This document shows, one piece after another, positions 1,049 to 17,476 of a stretch of DNA of 64,000 nucleotides (positions are counted from its first letter, which is position 1; every line of letters starts with the position of its first letter). Source of the stretch: a phage. The stretch lies in the sequence record PZ171032.1. One strand, given 5' to 3'. Below the pieces are notes generated by a model. It was not told where the DNA came from. It searched no databases and was given only the letters and a program-made list of their open reading frames with translations. Both the position numbers and the translations under genes were made by a program.

Positions 1049-1234
1049 ATGAAGCACTATTGTCTATCTGGTAGAATGGGTGCAGATTGTGATTGGGTTT
1101 TCTTAAAACTTGTCAGCATTCGAGAGTTCATCCCGGAGGAAGAGCAAGAAAGCGAGCTGATGTCATGGATCAACCATTACGGTAACACTTTTCGGCATGT
1201 TAAGGTGGAAGAGTTGCCAAGCGAGGCTGATTGA
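1049..1234 (+). CDS. hypothetical protein
   Basis: GGAGGG RBS upstream of ATG. Confidence 0.55.
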   Translation: MKHYCLSGRMGADCDWVFLKLVSIREFIPEEEQESELMSWINHYGNTFRHVKVEELPSEAD

Positions 1235-1236
1235 CT

Positions 1237-1326
1237 ATGATTGCATCAATATTAACGTTTATGGGCGGCGTGGCATTCGGATTCATTGTTTGCCTGTTTA
1301 TAGTGATTATGTCTATGCGAGGCTGA
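1237..1326 (+). CDS. tiny hydrophobic peptide (29 aa, MIASILTFMGGVAFGFIVCLFIVIMSMRG)
   Basis: short ORF exactly filling the gap between two genes; single predicted TM helix; below the track size cutoff. Confidence 0.3.
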   Translation: MIASILTFMGGVAFGFIVCLFIVIMSMRG

Positions 1327-1329
1327 ATT

Positions 1330-1626
1330 ATGAAACTTTTTGAGTGGTTTAAAAAGTTTAAATATAAAGCTGTAGCCATCGTGCCATGGTCCATTCAATG
1401 GGTGGACGATGAGGGATTACCAATTCCAGGTGATAAAGACACGGGATACTGGATCATGCTTGAAAACGGGTTTGGAAAGCGAAAATATACGTGCACAAAC
1501 TCTACTCGATCTGCACTTAATAGAGTGCCTGGTTACAAACTTATGGTTGTGTGGAAAATGTCAGGCGTGCCTCCAGCTAACGCTCAATTTCTTACTGACA
1601 ATCCAACCACGGTGGAGGGAGATTGA
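1330..1626 (+). CDS. hypothetical protein
   Basis: ORF in packed array. Confidence 0.6.
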   Translation: MKLFEWFKKFKYKAVAIVPWSIQWVDDEGLPIPGDKDTGYWIMLENGFGKRKYTCTNSTRSALNRVPGYKLMVVWKMSGVPPANAQFLTDNPTTVEGD

Positions 1627-6821: not shown

Positions 6822-7059
6822 CTTGAATGCTGGCGATCATGTTGTTGTCAAATGCATTGGAGATTATCTTGGATTCACAATCGGCAATACTTACGAGGCG
6901 ATAGTGGCGAAGGTTTATCATGATAAAGTCCTCAGTCTTGTATTTGACTGCGATGATGATGGGGATGACCGATACGTCTGTGAGGTGCTGGCACGAGACG
7001 ATAGTGAAGACCAGAAATTTCTGGTTATTGAACTGAACGGTATTTTTGTAGAACGTTAA
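6808..7059 (+). CDS. hypothetical acidic protein
   Basis: track ORF starts at 6742 (non-ATG); first ATG at 6808 (MTKIDLNAG). Confidence 0.6.
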   Translation: MTKIDLNAGDHVVVKCIGDYLGFTIGNTYEAIVAKVYHDKVLSLVFDCDDDGDDRYVCEVLARDDSEDQKFLVIELNGIFVER

Positions 7060-7087
7060 TTTAAAACAACATAAGGAGACTCTTACT

Positions 7088-7393
7088 ATGGCTAAATCTA
7101 AAGTTGAACTGTTCACCTCTCTTCCTTCTGACACTGCAGAGCGTGATCGCCTTCGCAAAACAATCGAAGAACTGGTGGAACTCCAACTTCAGATTAAAGA
7201 TCTGAAAGATGCCATTAAGGATATCATTCTCGTTGAGAAGCAGGATCATCTGTATTCTCCTAAATTCATCAAATCTTTGGTGGCTACAGAGTTTGATATC
7301 CGCTACGAAGCTGAAAAACGTCGCGCTAAGATTGAAGAAGAGGTTGAGCACATGTCTGAGGCAGACATTCTGTTCAAACGCTCTGTAGAATAA
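7088..7393 (+). CDS. hypothetical protein (charged, helical-looking)
   Basis: AAGGAGA RBS; charged helical composition. Confidence 0.6.
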   Translation: MAKSKVELFTSLPSDTAERDRLRKTIEELVELQLQIKDLKDAIKDIILVEKQDHLYSPKFIKSLVATEFDIRYEAEKRRAKIEEEVEHMSEADILFKRSVE

Positions 7394-8990: not shown

Positions 8991-10489
8991 CACACAATAT
9001 TAGATGTCCGGCTAAAGTGCTGGAAGCACCTATAGCATATCTTTCAACTAAATTTCCTACCACCACAATCACTTACCTCCCACACATGACTGTTTGCTTG
9101 TTTAGTGAGCAGTCATGCCTTGACATTCTTGCCTATCCTGATAAAATTAAGTTCTTCTCTTTTCTTTTACCGAGTAATTCGGGTTTTCTGTTCTCTTCGG
9201 TTTGAAGGGGTATGGAGATACACCTGAGTGAACAGGGTGAACAACCGAACATTCGGCTATGGCATTAGCATGGCGAAGCGAACGGGTGACGAAAGAGGGG
9301 CCGGAGGACACCAGTCACTGCCATATGATATATGGGTGATAACCTGAAGAGTCTGAATAAGTGTTTAAGTACCAGTCAGAGGAAAAGGTGAATGGTAGCC
9401 GAAGGGGGAGGGGGGGTTTCTTGTATCTTTAATTTGTATATTATGTATACACTTGTAAACCAATTTCATCTGAATCTGTTTACCATACAAAGTGGATTGA
9501 GACAAATATTACCTATTAAACTTGAATTATTTATAGAAAATACCACAACACACCTTAAGTCTTTGATTTTACACATAAATCCTACAGATATTCAACCTCC
9601 ATATTTAACATACTTGTAACATATCCTATACCACACCTGCCTGATCAATTTCCCCAACTACATCCTCTATATTTTACCTGCCTGTACTACCCCTGCCCCG
9701 CCGGGAGTCCCGTCATATCTGGCTTTCCAGCAAATATCCCACCAACAAATATCATTGCCTGAAGAGGGTTTCATCCCATAATACATGCCTTATCTGAAGA
9801 GCGCTTCATACACCACGTAAATTTTTTAATTGACCCCTCCCCGCCGCCGGAGAGGTTGGCTTTTCCCACACAGACCTGAAGAGTCAGCCAGAAATATCTG
9901 AATAGGCCCAATTCTACCACGATTTTGACCTGACCTACAGGGAGGCCCGAAGGGTCTAGCTTTCAGCTAGAGTCCTTGCAGGACCTACAGGAGTGCTGCC
10001 AGGCGGACGGAATGGGAATACTTCTCATTTTTATAATAATTCTCAAATATCGAGGCAGTGAGGCAAATTAATAGGTGAGGCCGTTCACACAGTGGCACAA
10101 CATTTGCAACCTATCTTGTGTGGGGGAATGATAATACCTATCATTGTGAGAACCATTATCATTACGGGCAATTTAACATAATACCCATTATGCGCACCAC
10201 TGGCGATACATACAGGGATTGATAACATGAGTTACAGTTTACGCATATAACAATTATATTTCTTATCATTTGTGTGGGATATAGTTAGCAGCCAATAGAT
10301 TAGATATTGACCTGCATACTTCCAACCGTCTAGACGTCTAAACGCCCACACACCAAGGATTATACATACACTCCTGAATGTAAACAGGGCCGCAAAAATG
10401 CTACCATACAAGCTTGTAAATTTTTCATGCAGCACTTGACAAAGAGGAGAAAAACTTGTCTGACATAATGTGACCTAACTGACACAACA

Positions 10490-10590
10490 TGACACTTTTA
10501 CACACCTATTAGTTTACACACTGGATTGTTTACATTCCTGATTGTTCACATGCTAACCATTTACATGATTGACTGTTTACACACCGATAA
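10490..10590. repeat. iteron-like array of short direct repeats (TTTACACAC / TTTACAT, about 15-bp period)
   Basis: at least six copies of TTTACA(C/T) words spaced about 14-16 bp apart within 100 bp of ORF-free DNA. Confidence 0.5.
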
Positions 10591-10593
10591 TCA

Positions 10594-10613
10594 GCCATGC
10601 CATTCGTTTGCAT
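10594..10613. repeat. 20-bp direct repeat GCCATGCCATTCGTTTGCAT, copy 1
   Basis: exact 20-mer repeated at about 10825-10844. Confidence 0.6.
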
Positions 10614-10656
10614 GACAATAATTATACATGACAATAATCGCACTGATTATAATTAG

Positions 10657-10722
10657 CATGACATAATATAAAAGCAGGGCAACTATTAGCAGATCTATAG
10701 TTGCCCTGCTTGTTATGTCATG
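10657..10722. repeat. long imperfect palindrome (perfect 15-bp arms AAGCAGGGCAACTAT / ATAGTTGCCCTGCTT, extended by CATGACATAA arms)
   Basis: reverse-complementary arms around a 9-nt centre, seen directly in the sequence. Confidence 0.6.
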
Positions 10723-10824
10723 ATTAACTAAATACAAGGCAACTATGATCTGATTAATAGTTTGCAGACAAACTATCACGGGGGTGATGGTTACTGCTTT
10801 TATATTATGTCGCGACTCCGTCGC

Positions 10825-10844
10825 GCCATGCCATTCGTTTGCAT
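10825..10844. repeat. 20-bp direct repeat GCCATGCCATTCGTTTGCAT, copy 2
   Basis: exact copy of 10594-10613; preceded by palindromic GTCGCGAC. Confidence 0.6.
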
Positions 10845-11461
10845 AGTTGCCTTATTGTTACAGGTAAAATAATTACATTATTAATTATTTCTTATCTTTC
10901 TCTTAGTCATCTAATGATTCCAGTCAGTATAGTAATGTACAGTAAACATTAGACGACTAAATATTTCTATGCTTATGATAACTTGCCGTGACAATTTCGG
11001 ACTGTTTACGAAAAATGTTGACACCTGGGCGGGTTTATGTTATGCAGTTTACACGAATAATTATTTCATACAGGTATTGACTATTCCGTTATTCTGTGGT
11101 TGGAATAAATACTTTGCAGGCTATAGAATGGTGTGCGTACGTGAATTCTAAGATCTGGCGGCTATAGTTACACCCGATTTTTCACGTAGAACACGCTTTT
11201 TGGTTTGTGTAAGTGTATGACTTATAAAGATTTTTAGTTGTTGACAGGATATTGAAGATGTGCATCAGGTTAAATTTTGTGCAATAGCTGCAGTACGTGC
11301 ATTTTTGGAAGGAAAAACGTGTAAAAATGGTCCTGCTACCACATAATGAAAGATTATGCAATAGCTATTTTATATGTATATTTGTACAGTGTGTGGGATT
11401 GATGGCTCGTCAATTATTCCACTTGCTGGGTGGGGCCGTTTGTGGTAGGAGGAGAGCAGAC

Positions 11462-12106: not shown

Positions 12107-12318
12107 AATGTTTTCCTCTCTTCTGGTTGTTGTGTGGGCACTTTTGCCCCTTCAAGATAAATGATACCCCCACCACCTGGCAGATGTCAACGGTTTTTAT
12201 AGTTTTTTATATAACAGGCACCCACGGTGATTGTCTCCCCCCGTCGCCAAGTGCCACCCGTGAGACAAGTATACCAAAAAACAGGACCATTGCAAGCCCT
12301 GTTTATAGTCTATAAGGA

Positions 12319-12518: not shown

Positions 12519-12653
12519 CTAAAACAATGAGTTAATATATAACACCAGATCGCTGACTACCAGGACAACATTAATCAGCACATACCTAACCATAAAGGGA
12601 AAGATCGCCAACATTGCCGCCACGATCCCCATGGTAATAATTATCTTTCTCAT
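12519..12653 (-). CDS. tiny hydrophobic peptide (44 aa)
   Basis: ORF filling the gap before 12319-12510; TM-like IIITMGIVAAMLAIFPF and VLINVVLVV. Confidence 0.3.
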   Translation of the reverse strand: MRKIIITMGIVAAMLAIFPFMVRYVLINVVLVVSDLVLYINSLF

Positions 12654-15472: not shown

Positions 15473-15670
15473 TTATTTTTTATTAAACCAGTGGTTGATC
15501 TGGCCTTTTGTCAGGGCGCAACGATTAAGCTGTTGCCGGGTATAGCTCTGACCGCGACGGAATTTATAAAGGCCTTGCCCGTTGTTGATGGTTACGTCCA
15601 CCTGGCAAACCATTTGATCGGTGACGGCCTGGCGAGTGTTGCGACGTACTTTAATTCCGTAGGCGTTCAT
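15473..15670 (-). CDS. hypothetical protein
   Basis: ORF; no motif. Confidence 0.5.
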   Translation of the reverse strand: MNAYGIKVRRNTRQAVTDQMVCQVDVTINNGQGLYKFRRGQSYTRQQLNRCALTKGQINHWFNKK

Positions 15671-15687
15671 GATTTTTATCCTCTCTG

Positions 15688-15930
15688 TTAATTAGTGTGG
15701 TGTTGTTCACCTTGCGAGGATAAGAATAACAGAACTATCCGAGCTGTCAACCATTGGTTAGAATTATTTTTTGGGCAGAATTCTCCAGCCGCCGCCCCTG
15801 CCAGGTTAACCATCATTTTTTCGTACTCTTCTTTATGTTCCAACGCTCCCGCCATAGCCTTTTCAACCAGGGTGATAGCCTCAGCGTCATTAATCGCTAC
15901 ATTTCCCAGGTGAGTAGCATTACCTTTCAT
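15688..15930 (-). CDS. hypothetical protein
   Basis: ORF; no motif. Confidence 0.55.
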   Translation of the reverse strand: MKGNATHLGNVAINDAEAITLVEKAMAGALEHKEEYEKMMVNLAGAAAGEFCPKNNSNQWLTARIVLLFLSSQGEQHHTN

Positions 15931-16087
15931 TTTTGCACCTCCTCTTCAATTGTTTACCCTACAGCATGGGCCTACCAGGTTTGCAAGATTTCACCCTCTC
16001 CCACCTGGTCAGTTAGGTCCTGCCAGGCTGGCCCCGCCAGGTTGCAACGGTTAGCGCATCAGGTTAGAAAAATTTTTTGAAAAGGTG

Positions 16088-16116
16088 TTGACAGCGGCCC
16101 CGCCAGGTGGCACAAT
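16088..16116 (+). promoter_or_regulatory. promoter-like element (TTGACA-N17-CACAAT) of tandem unit 1
   Basis: perfect -35 hexamer, weak -10 with upstream TG; heads the first of two homologous about 80-nt units. Confidence 0.35.
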
Positions 16117-16129
16117 ATACCTATCGAAA

Positions 16130-16350
16130 GGACGGCAGGCACCGGTGACGGGGGAGACAACCACCGGGGATGGGCGCTGCATAAAATGAGAACGGTTATC
16201 ATTATCATTTAAAAATTTATGCAAAAAATCCTTGCCTTCTTTGTCCTGTGTGATACTATAATAACAAGCCGGGGCAACAGGGGCCGGGAGACAATCACCG
16301 GGCCTGCCCGTTATTCTGCAAACGAGAATGATTATCATTCAAAATTCTAA
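16130..16350 (+). ncRNA. candidate pair of tandem small-RNA or regulatory units (no family assigned)
   Basis: two homologous segments (GGGAGACAAYCACCGGG ... GAGAAYGRTTATCATT) each preceded by its own promoter-like element; no convincing ORF. Confidence 0.3.
16232..16259 (+). promoter_or_regulatory. promoter-like element (TTGCCT-N16-TGaTACTAT, extended -10) of tandem unit 2
   Basis: hexamers with extended -10 TG. Confidence 0.4.
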
Positions 16351-16458
16351 ATGAGAACTCCTCGCATTTAATAAATTTAATTAGCACGCTAATTACCCTC
16401 CGTAACAATTTCCTATAAAATAGTATCCACTAAAATATTCCCATATAGAAATTTTAAA

Positions 16459-16633
16459 AATCCATTTCTGAAAACGAAAAATCGATTTCGTCCCCAAAAA
16501 TTTCAGGTCGAGAGCCGGAACGATTTCCAGAAAATCCGATTCAGAAAACGAAAAACAGATCGAGTACTGAGAAATTTATCGAGAAAAATTTTCAGAAAAT
16601 TCAATCTTTGAAACGAAAAACAGATCGAGTACT
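16459..16633. repeat. direct repeats GAAAACGAAAAA(C/T)(A)GATCGAGTACT (three copies, about 70-85 bp apart)
   Basis: 25-mer repeated almost exactly at about 16544 and 16610, partial copy at about 16459; additional AAATCCATTTT words nearby. Confidence 0.5.
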
Positions 16634-16943
16634 TGGAAAGCTGCGCCACAACTTCAAGGTAGTGGTTGGATTATTACTATAAAAGGTCAAGGGTAAGTGG
16701 GGGAAGTTCTAGTAGAAGGGTGTGAGCATGTGCGGGAAATCTGTAATGGTGGTCTGGAATATGGTGCAGACGATAGGATGAGTGGTTCATCTCGTCGTGC
16801 CTGCTCTGAAAAATCCATTTTAGTTTTCGATCCATTTTCTGATTTTCTAAGGATTTTAAAATATCCTGGTAGGTAAAATATCAAAAGGAGGAAATCCATT
16901 TTAGAAATCCTCCTGATCTCTGGCAACCTGATAACTTAAAATA

Positions 16944-17276
16944 TCAGGCTCCCAGTGTGTTCTTTCCTTTATACAACCGTAAGGGTATAGTTTTTGTAAC
17001 AGTCCATCTCCCCAGCCCTTCCCAGTTCCAGTTGTAGGCATGGTACCCGGTTACGCATGCACTGCTGGAGTGATCATAGGCATAAGAGAACGCTATACGC
17101 ACCAAATGAAACCAGTCTTTCCACGGTTGTGGTCCGTAAGCTTTTCTCCAACACCGACACAAGCTAAATGTCTCAAGAATAGGCAGGATAACAAATCCAT
17201 ACACCGCCACCAGAATAGCCAACGCAATGATTGTCAGGAATACATACCCTGCAGTTGAAACGATGATCTCTGTCAT
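16944..17276 (-). CDS. hypothetical membrane protein
   Basis: two predicted TM helices (VFLTIIALAILVAVYGFVILPIL). Confidence 0.55.
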   Translation of the reverse strand: MTEIIVSTAGYVFLTIIALAILVAVYGFVILPILETFSLCRCWRKAYGPQPWKDWFHLVRIAFSYAYDHSSSACVTGYHAYNWNWEGLGRWTVTKTIPLRLYKGKNTLGA

Positions 17277-17476
17277 TTGTCGTCCCCTTTCTTATGGATA
17301 TAGATATGAGAGCCTGCCTGTATATAAATTTCTCGACCATCTTCTGCAAAGATATGAAATACACGATCACCTTCATACTCGATACGAGATATCTTCATAA
17401 TGGTCTTTCCACCTGGGATACGGATCTCGTCCCCCACAGCGATGTTCCATGCAGATTTAAGCTTAAACATCTGCAC
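17273..17476 (-). CDS. hypothetical protein
   Basis: stop/start overlap with neighbour. Confidence 0.5.
   Translation of the reverse strand: MQMFKLKSAWNIAVGDEIRIPGGKTIMKISRIEYEGDRVFHIFAEDGREIYIQAGSHIYIHKKGDDK

Follow-up and report, generated by a model that had tools for sequence, protein, structure and literature searches.

The primary origin of phage T7 consists of the tandem promoters 1.1A/1.1B and an AT-rich region, oriF and oriG of T4 combine a promoter and an unwinding element with an R-loop primer, and lambda ori and oriR of phage P1 contain iterons and AT-rich DNA rich in GATC. Promoter-early stem-loop (PeSL) cassettes have been described in T4-like phages (PMC2839356, PMC4122927). 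The sitABCD operon of lambdoid coliphages is Fur-regulated (PMC6969025), a Fur site is located at the prophage gene nohA (PMC2189734), and Fur sites have been described as clusters in which neighbouring sites overlap at offsets of 3 or 6 bp (Chen et al. 2007, PMC2189734). Here, we describe a non-coding island in a 64,000-nucleotide (nt) stretch of phage DNA (sequence record PZ171032.1), the whole of which is called the window below. Our preferred reading, which is tentative and falls somewhat short of an even chance, is that the island is a Fur-gated cis-acting control region of rV5-like phages from which transcription would enter a unique iteron array that may serve as an origin.

The island was 99.9% identical to Escherichia phage naam (Vequintavirus, rV5-like, Vequintavirinae). 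Judged from its sequence, the source of the window is a close mosaic relative of naam and not naam itself. The window was not collinear with the naam record throughout: the region 15600–17300 was 99.9% naam, whereas a second non-coding island at 9300–10900 differed, with phage inoa being closest (96.5%) and naam only 90% identical and shifted in position. Because of this, the "whole-genome" scans were carried out on a chimera of the 64-kb window and the remaining 73 kb of naam, its closest relative (~137 kb). Close comparisons used five Vequintavirus relatives of the window, including JeffSchatz. The features of the island are as follows.

15931–16943: non-coding island, a 1,013-bp unannotated gap between two small minus-strand genes in naam
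16088–16116, plus strand: promoter P1, sigma70 type, TTGACA-17-CACAAT, with TG upstream of the -10 and an A-rich UP-like tract upstream
16120–16184, plus strand: unit 1, a GC-rich promoter-proximal element of ~65 nt with core GGGGGAGACAACCACCGGGG, a paralogue of units 2 and 3
16182–16212, unstranded: predicted Fur-box cluster 1, with a phage-type 19-mer at 16185–16203 and the best classical 19-mer at 16188–16206 (GATAATGATAACCGTTCTC on the minus strand)
16232–16259, plus strand: promoter P2, TTGCCT-16-TACTAT, read directly from the sequence, with an alternative perfect TATAAT at 16257–16262
16262–16320, plus strand: unit 2, the orthologue of "unit B" of other genera, with core GGGAGACAATCACCGGG and then TGCCCGTTATTCTGCAAAC
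16321–16339, unstranded: predicted Fur box 2, AACGAGAATGATTATCATT
16350–16368, unstranded: predicted Fur box 3, degenerate, AATGAGAACTCCTCGCATT, exactly 29 bp after box 2
16369–16443, unstranded: AT-rich spacer of ~30% G+C that separates the repeats from the Fur boxes
16444–16500, 16518–16574 and 16583–16639, plus strand: three composite direct repeats of 57 nt each, spaced 74 and 65 bp
16640–16805, plus strand: G-rich, C-poor, fast-evolving tract that keeps its composition while its sequence drifts
16806–16915, minus strand: conserved island end, with two exact AAATCCATTTT words (16811 and 16892) and a hairpin at 16886–16914 followed by a minus-strand U-run

The Fur-box arrays are the firmest new result. 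An earlier sequence-only reading of this DNA had listed a transcription-factor binding array among the possible functions of the island; this option is now the best supported one, by way of Fur boxes that the earlier reading had missed. The classical Fur 19-mer GATAATGATAATCATTATC (7-1-7 core TGATAATnATTATCA) was matched at no fewer than 14 of 19 positions 16 times in the 64-kb window, compared with 2.5 times expected from simulation. Box 1 matched it at 16/19, the best match in the window, with overlapping matches at 6-bp offsets (16182, 16188 and 16194), and box 2 matched it at 15/19 with 6-bp-offset matches at 16318 and 16324. Both boxes form overlapping clusters in the sense of PMC2189734. 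An isolated 15/19 match at 12633 had no such 6-bp-offset cluster. Box 2 was 100% conserved in four of the five relatives.

From 45 distinct phage boxes, the consensus tAAATGAGAATsATTCTCATTTa was obtained. A matrix built only from these boxes scored cluster 1 at 24.0 bits, box 2 at 28.6 bits (the top match in the window) and box 3 at 22.4 bits. With a matrix from other genera, free of Vequintavirus boxes, cluster 1 still reached 18.1 bits and box 3 reached 20.8 bits, and box 2 was the top match in the window plus the 73 kb of naam (27.8 bits, compared with a null maximum of 16.4). The six best matches of the matrix without Vequintavirus boxes in ~137 kb all fell in the two non-coding islands, and four of them exceeded every null maximum. 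The boxes of the other island are listed here.

10011–10029, 10127–10145 and 10145–10163, unstranded: three further Fur-type boxes in the other island, scoring 19.1, 13.5 and 9.8 bits, respectively

The phage-box matrix was also scanned on four 50-kb stretches of E. coli K-12 (200 kb). Nine of the 11 best matches were located in the promoter regions of fecI, fhuA, cirA, fepA/fes, fecA, fepB/entC (three matches) and fepD/entS, known Fur-regulated regions that make up ~0.7% of the DNA scanned. All of these are classical Fur-repressed promoters. The remaining two matches were found in the yeiS/preT intergenic region (L033, 13860) and the map/rpsB-tff intergenic region (L032, 44580), which are not known to us as Fur-regulated promoters, and may be unrecognised Fur sites or false positives. 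Of the recovered promoters, fhuA and fepD-entS are listed as Fur sites in PMC2189734. A BLAST comparison of the box region with 5,426 E. coli genomes gave one irrelevant match, the method being too insensitive for 19-bp sites. The recovery of K-12 operators, the matches to the classical 19-mer and the placement in two islands together establish, at the sequence level, the equivalence of the phage palindromes to Fur operators, and Fur is predicted to bind them.

An alternative is that the palindromes and repeats are operators of phage-encoded regulators, serving an early-to-middle switch at divergent promoters, with the likeness to Fur sites being convergent or incidental. Three-operator arrays are typical of phage repressors. 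The consensus half-site was TGAGAAT and not TGATAAT, although the footprinted aerobactin (iucA) Fur site is reported to contain the same AATGAGAATCATT. The array period was strictly 29 bp, this start-to-start spacing recurring in KpS11, GAP31, POP15, phiTE and phAPEC8, and we know of no host Fur operator with a 29-bp-period array. In phiTE, a small protein with a helix-turn-helix-like motif, recognised by eye, is encoded at the head of the plus-strand unit. On the other hand, host Fur operators are picked out very specifically by the box matrix, the boxes stay the same in genera with strongly diverged proteins, and an identical Fur-type 22-mer was also present in the unrelated viral contigs L008, L022 and L015. 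We consider phage-encoded regulators at these boxes very unlikely. The boxes did not vary with host or genus, while the iteron core changed along with the phage lineage (GATCGAGTAC, GATCGAGAAC and CTCAAGTCC); this fits binding of the boxes by a host factor and of the iterons by a phage factor.

The plus-strand unit of other genera is headed by such a small protein gene (L023, phiTE, ~1165–1445, reverse strand; L005, 1097–1279, PVP-SE1 gp201). The motif read by eye in the phiTE protein was GGTVHQVAHETGLTVSEILDL, and the protein could be a regulator or an iteron-binding protein. No counterpart of this gene was found in the island of the window. Among the unrelated contigs, the 22-mer in L022 (2530–2650) was located in non-coding DNA between a sigma70-type promoter and the first gene, beside terminase genes. 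In L008 (1150–1450) it was likewise in non-coding DNA, located among several TTATCCACA DnaA boxes, between the terminase gene and early genes; this contig carries a terminase fragment and a T7-type primase-helicase. L015 contained four tandem boxes with 26-bp spacing (7030–7140).

The boxes also have a fixed position. The unit/box junction ..YATTCNGCA|AATGAGAAT.. was constant in every main-island copy across genera, and second unit copies in Mydovirus, Erwinia-phage and Certrevirus-like genomes again showed a promoter, a unit and a Fur-like box. This fixed placement argues for a local, transcription-linked role and not for a pure decoy. As a decoy, the boxes would have no local role in transcription, and about six strong ones in each of hundreds of amplified genomes would soak up Fur, de-repress iron uptake and RyhB iron-sparing, and feed iron-dependent ribonucleotide reductases, and the closest relative does encode class I and class III ribonucleotide reductases. 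The phage boxes scored 22–29 bits compared with 12–20 bits for host operators, though the phage-built matrix favours phage boxes. Each array held one to four boxes, with two arrays in the sequence searched, and the FURTA assay (cited in PMC2189734) exploits the known in vivo titration of Fur by multicopy Fur boxes. However, roughly six sites per genome is a modest number, and together with the fixed junction in the main island and in the second copies it leaves a decoy function unlikely.

Among the Vequintavirus relatives, 16030–16639 was 86–100% identical, while the adjacent coding DNA was 36–86% identical, which points to a strongly conserved control region under selection. Beyond the genus, BLAST detected only 16271–16380 (unit 2 and the palindromes), at 77–88% identity, in phages of Klebsiella, Proteus, Raoultella, Cronobacter, Salmonella, Pectobacterium, Erwinia and Enterobacter and in phAPEC8-like Stephanstirmvirinae. 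When IMG/VR was scanned with a degenerate pattern of the unit core, most matches were due to chance, and they were filtered with nhmmer. The architecture elsewhere, on the strand opposite the genes, was a small open reading frame (ORF; in most genera), a promoter with a ~100-nt element called unit A, a promoter with unit B, 19-bp palindromes (one to four of them, in most cases spaced at a 29-bp period), a third promoter (P3) and three ~85-bp repeats of the same build as those of the window, each with an A/T palindrome, a AAATACGATTT word and GAAAA..CGATCGAGAAC. Three GAAAA..CGATCGAGAAC repeats followed the Fur boxes in KpS11, GAP31, PVP-SE1 and L016, POP15 and phiTE had a denser and less regular array of the same repeat word, and Hena1-like phages had a diverged repeat core, CTCAAGTCC. 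The order of promoter, unit, Fur box(es), AT-rich DNA and three repeats was kept across the Vequintavirinae genera and phAPEC8. The elements, their order and their conservation, like the likeness of the boxes to Fur operators, can be read directly from the genomes compared.

Units 1 and 2 were homologous from the -10 through ~100 nt, with a local alignment score of 27 compared with 8.6 ± 1.5 (maximum 17) for shuffles. This agrees with the sequence-only reading, which had described two homologous promoter-plus-transcript segments facing the minus-strand genes. The sequence-only reading had also tied its proposal to conservation of the units in related genomes, and orthologues of unit 2 (nhmmer E = 1e-14) were present at the same place in all genera examined. 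Unit 1 was 94–100% identical among relatives, above the flanking gene, and its single-sequence fold had a z-score of -2.3. The shared 17-mer GGGAGACAAYCACCGGG occurred three times in the window compared with 0.21 expected, the third copy lying on the minus strand at 12223–12239 within a third unit.

12203–12297, minus strand: unit 3, with its own promoter TTGCAA-17-TATACT, co-directional with the genes

Unit 3 (nhmmer E = 1e-9) is followed by a second promoter and a gene of 90 amino acids.

These three paralogues might form a family of trans-acting RNAs of ~55–70 nt, in which GAGACAAWCACC would be a seed or a protein-binding loop and the Fur boxes would tune or end synthesis. Each of the three copies has its own promoter, and the unit core was invariant across genera while the flanks varied, with the strongest conservation in GAGACAAWCACC and the 3' part TGCCYGYYATTC. 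In all copies, an upstream G-run and a downstream C-run can pair and leave AGACAAW in the hairpin loop, and the related phage phiTE expresses a functional non-coding RNA (PMC3475682). However, the helix register shifted between copies, and in our reading of the alignment the single varying R/Y pair of the hairpin showed all four combinations. RNAalifold on 17 unit sequences, the kind of folding analysis in homologous phages that the earlier reading had proposed as a check, gave no consensus structure (0 pairs), and the fold z-scores of the units ranged from -2.7 to +0.3, mostly near zero relative to shuffles. Rfam 15 gave no match at the gathering threshold in the whole window, and only chance-level matches at E up to 10 on both strands of the island and three distant loci. 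No plus-strand terminator was called in the promoter/terminator scan, and no complementary target was found within the window. Of the small regulatory or antisense RNAs suggested earlier, the conserved promoters stand, while an Rfam match, an RNAalifold consensus and a clear terminator are lacking; a trans-acting RNA family is unlikely in our view, though a serious alternative. The units are therefore treated as promoter-proximal leader elements, because the evidence of a selected RNA fold is weak and there is no terminator-defined 3' end. GUUAUUCUG follows the hairpin of unit 2, and AUAAAAUG follows unit 1. For the GYYAUUCU segment, the left half of Fur box 2 is an alternative pairing partner.

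Another explanation is that the island consists of PeSL-like recombination or regulatory cassettes, with the repetition arising from module shuffling and having no local function. Composites of a sigma70 early promoter and a GC stem-loop are indeed repeated here in intergenic DNA of an early region rich in small ORFs. Yet only three copies were found in ~137 kb. Their loop sequence is conserved, unlike that of PeSLs, the promoter precedes the hairpin, and the copy in the main island shows synteny across subfamilies, with no variable ORF next to it. We give this explanation very little chance.

In Mydovirus, Seunavirus, Certrevirus and relatives, unit A is an element of ~100 nt with its own promoter just upstream of unit B (L003, 1310–1410; L005, ~1335–1435; L006, ~1320–1420; also L007, L010, L016, L023 and L026). 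RNAalifold gave unit A a consensus fold in which four pairs change on both sides. A pseudoknot is suggested by its invariant CGCC/GGCG hairpin, whose loop, CCCC or CCAA, can pair with GGGG or TTGG further downstream. No Rfam match to unit A was found. Unit A is a better structured-RNA candidate than the units of the window. It is absent from the window, where unit 1, a duplicate of unit B, takes its place.

Both promoter-like elements reported by the sequence-only reading, at 16088–16116 and 16232–16259, were found where it had placed them. P1 scored 10/12 in the promoter scan, was 89–93% identical among the Vequintavirus relatives and fits the Certrevirus early-promoter consensus AAAA(N3-4)TGTTGAC(N17-19)TATAAT (PMC7344957). 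In the 33-kb minus-strand gene block (~11–44 kb), 25 of 27 TTGAC-type sigma70 promoter matches were on the minus strand, and P1 is one of the two plus-strand exceptions. P2 was below the threshold of the promoter scanner and is weaker than P1 by consensus. In Mydovirus, Seunavirus, Certrevirus and phAPEC8, its orthologue keeps TTGnnn-N16/17-(T/G)ATnnT around a diverging spacer. The AT-rich spacer at 16369–16443 was 80–100% identical among relatives and may contain a weak third plus-strand promoter, TTTCCT-16-TAAAAT, by our own reading; it was not called by the promoter scan. In other genera, P3 at the position of this spacer is a clear extended -10 promoter pointing straight into the repeats.

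Several other sequences were observed around these promoters. A GC-rich 17-mer, GGCCCCGCCAGGT(T/G)GCA, with a Dcm site (CCWGG), was repeated at 16030–16046 and 16096–16112; one copy is the P1 spacer, and a promoter-like site, TTGCAA-17-TAGAAA, follows the other. Many early promoters of related phages had similar GC-rich spacers with CCWGG. In five genera, a perfect CpxR-type direct repeat, GTAAA-N5-GTAAA, was located immediately upstream of the -35 of the unit-B promoter (L003, ~1415–1435; L005, ~1438–1455; L006, ~1428–1445; L023, phiTE; and L016), and it was absent from this window. The -10/+1 region of the unit-B promoter of Mydovirus and Certrevirus was TTATACACA, which fits the DnaA-box consensus TTWTNCACA and which we take to be the sequence of the oriC R2 box.

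Downstream of the boxes, each composite repeat contains an A/T palindrome of the GAAAAATTTTC type, an AAAATCCRWTTC word and GAAAACGAAAAACAGATCGAGTACT. The three 25-bp direct-repeat copies that had been seen in the sequence-only reading are the cores of these 57-nt repeats: one copy was exact (16544–16568) and one had two mismatches (16609–16633), with 0 expected, and the third was degenerate. TRF did not call the 65–74-bp array. The 20-mer core ACGAAAAACAGATCGAGTAC was found only in the island in ~137 kb, two of the three repeat copies contained GATC, and naam encodes a Dam-like methylase. The lineage divergence of the repeat core would fit a co-evolving phage DNA-binding protein. G+C was 30–32% at 16300–16600, and P1 and P2 point into this AT-rich region. 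At least three direct repeats at a single locus and an adjoining AT-rich region with promoters reading in are thus present, as looked for in an origin.

The tract at 16640–16805 had a GC skew of +0.32 to +0.46 in all six Vequintavirus sequences. Its identity was 52–72% in four of the five relatives, with indels of 1–2 nt, and 99% in JeffSchatz. The island end at 16806–16915 was 92–100% identical among relatives. Its hairpin at 16886–16914 (-18.3 kcal/mol, z = -2.1), with UUUUGAUAUUUU after the stem, is probably the terminator of the upstream minus-strand operon. The AAATCCATTTT words noted earlier were exact at 16811 and 16892, but their enrichment was weak: with one mismatch, seven were found compared with 2.9 expected, and 3 of 100 shuffles reached seven.

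Identity as ToxI or pseudo-ToxI (type III antitoxin-like) repeats was rejected, head-to-tail repeats of ~34–45 nt being expected and the period here being 65–74 bp, with no array of that kind found by TRF. The phiTE locus with the homologous island contained no ToxI-like 36-mer at up to 9 mismatches from the ToxI sequence used as query.

The gap itself was also considered as coding sequence. The ORFs at 16051–16338, 16503–16649, 16677–16835 and 16687–16926, all on the minus strand, carried stops or frameshifts in close relatives, so the coding hypothesis was rejected and the gap is therefore non-coding; the sequence-only reading had already regarded two of them (16051–16338 and 16687–16926) as likely repeat artefacts. 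Deposited hypothetical-protein coding sequences cover the repeat arrays or units of relatives, such as PVP-SE1 gp202, GAP31_043A, rV5 ORF198/199 and bas55_0098-0100 (L003, 1610–1954; L004, 1651–1932; L005, 1615–1899; L002, 1957–2555; L029, 731–1570). They are probably annotation artefacts, because the Vequintavirus ones are broken in relatives. A search for tRNA and tmRNA in the window found none. For the gene at 15688–15930, no convincing minus-strand promoter was found; the candidate had a 19-nt spacer and its site was not conserved in rV5.

On our preferred reading, that of a Fur-gated control region, two tandem sigma70 early promoters would fire against the surrounding genes, each into a paralogous GC-rich leader of ~60 nt. 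Fur-Fe2+ on the boxes would block or limit RNA polymerase coming from P1 and P2, and bound Fur may also hinder the promoter that follows. Under iron scarcity, the boxes would be empty and transcription would proceed into the AT-rich and iteron segment. The iteron segment would most plausibly be the binding array of a phage DNA-binding protein, with an origin-like element as the leading guess, and early events of the phage would be coupled to the iron status of the host. We infer both the occupancy of the boxes by Fur in vivo and its roadblock effect, and likewise the role of the island as an origin.

Several observations weigh against parts of this mechanism. The boxes are located at about +60 to +100 from the P2 start, or at about -70, and do not overlap a -35 or -10 as is classical for Fur repression; a roadblock by Fur is expected to be weak. 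No Fur box accompanies unit 3. In the promoter scan, the region gave no more sites than shuffles. With respect to an origin, no conserved DnaA box and no IHF consensus were found in the island, which showed only local wiggle in GC skew and no inflection, and no initiator gene is adjacent to it in this phage. The repeat spacing of 65–74 bp is unlike that of classical iterons (19–22 bp). The rV5 paper places the GC-skew switches elsewhere, one of them coinciding with the other island, and marks a "non-coding" box; it did not succeed in locating an origin. The secondary origin suggested by the sequence-only reading accordingly keeps the unique 20-mer, the AT-rich tract and the inward promoters in its favour, but lacks DnaA and IHF sites and has the skew switches elsewhere.

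The other island (9300–10900) contains 16-bp-spaced TTTACA(C/T) repeats at 10497–10581. It corresponds to 104.3–106.0 kb of rV5, the convergent junction and GC-skew switch of the rV5 paper, and several GenBank records start or end inside it. It may hold the packaging or terminal region or the main origin.

Conserved backward-pointing promoters interleaved with Fur sites suggest that a virulent phage reads the iron status of its host. In a wider form, which is possible but rather doubtful, strictly virulent enterobacterial phages (Vequintavirinae, Stephanstirmvirinae and some unrelated ones with the same box beside early promoters) would use host Fur as an input, the arrays gating plus-strand transcription into a unique iteron element, which may be the replication origin, and perhaps acting as a Fur sponge on amplification, so that replication would be tied to iron acquisition. 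Phages of the rV5-like and phAPEC8-like groups have broad host ranges and are candidates for therapy and biocontrol; they act where iron is limited, as in the gut and at infection sites. Should their early control region be wired to Fur, the efficiency with which they infect would vary with iron status, and host-factor sensing by phages would extend from temperate switches to virulent phages. For this phage group, the island is also a candidate origin or control region that is concrete and can be mapped, and spurious "hypothetical protein" annotations over the repeats (rV5 ORF198/199, bas55_0098-0100 and PVP-SE1 gp202-like ORFs) can be removed.

In the literature searched, whose coverage was incomplete, neither Fur boxes nor units or repeats of this kind were reported from virulent phages; a prior description is possible. 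The Certrevirus paper (PMC7344957) describes the early promoter consensus only. None of the four kinds of known system with which the island was compared combines all of its features. Like enterobacterial Fur boxes, the predicted sites are 19-bp AT-rich palindromes that match GATAATGATAATCATTATC at 15–16 of 19 positions in 6-bp-offset clusters, but they are found in gene-free DNA of a virulent phage, do not overlap a -35 or -10, form 29-bp-period arrays and have the half-site TGAGAAT. The origins of T7, T4, lambda and phage P1 share with the island tandem promoters into an AT-rich segment, island-unique repeats with GATC and a G-rich tract downstream, whereas here the repeats are 57-nt composites 65–74 bp apart, with no adjacent or enclosing initiator gene, no DnaA or IHF sites and no skew inflection. 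PeSL cassettes likewise repeat a sigma70-like early promoter with a GC stem-loop in intergenic DNA of an early, ORFan-rich region; the island differs in having three copies and not dozens, a conserved loop, an association with Fur boxes, a syntenic main copy and no ORF swap. The Fur-regulated genes of temperate phages (sitABCD and nohA) resemble the island in carrying a host Fur site on phage DNA, but those sites control cargo or prophage genes in the lysogen, while the predicted sites described here are located in a non-coding early control region of strictly virulent phages.

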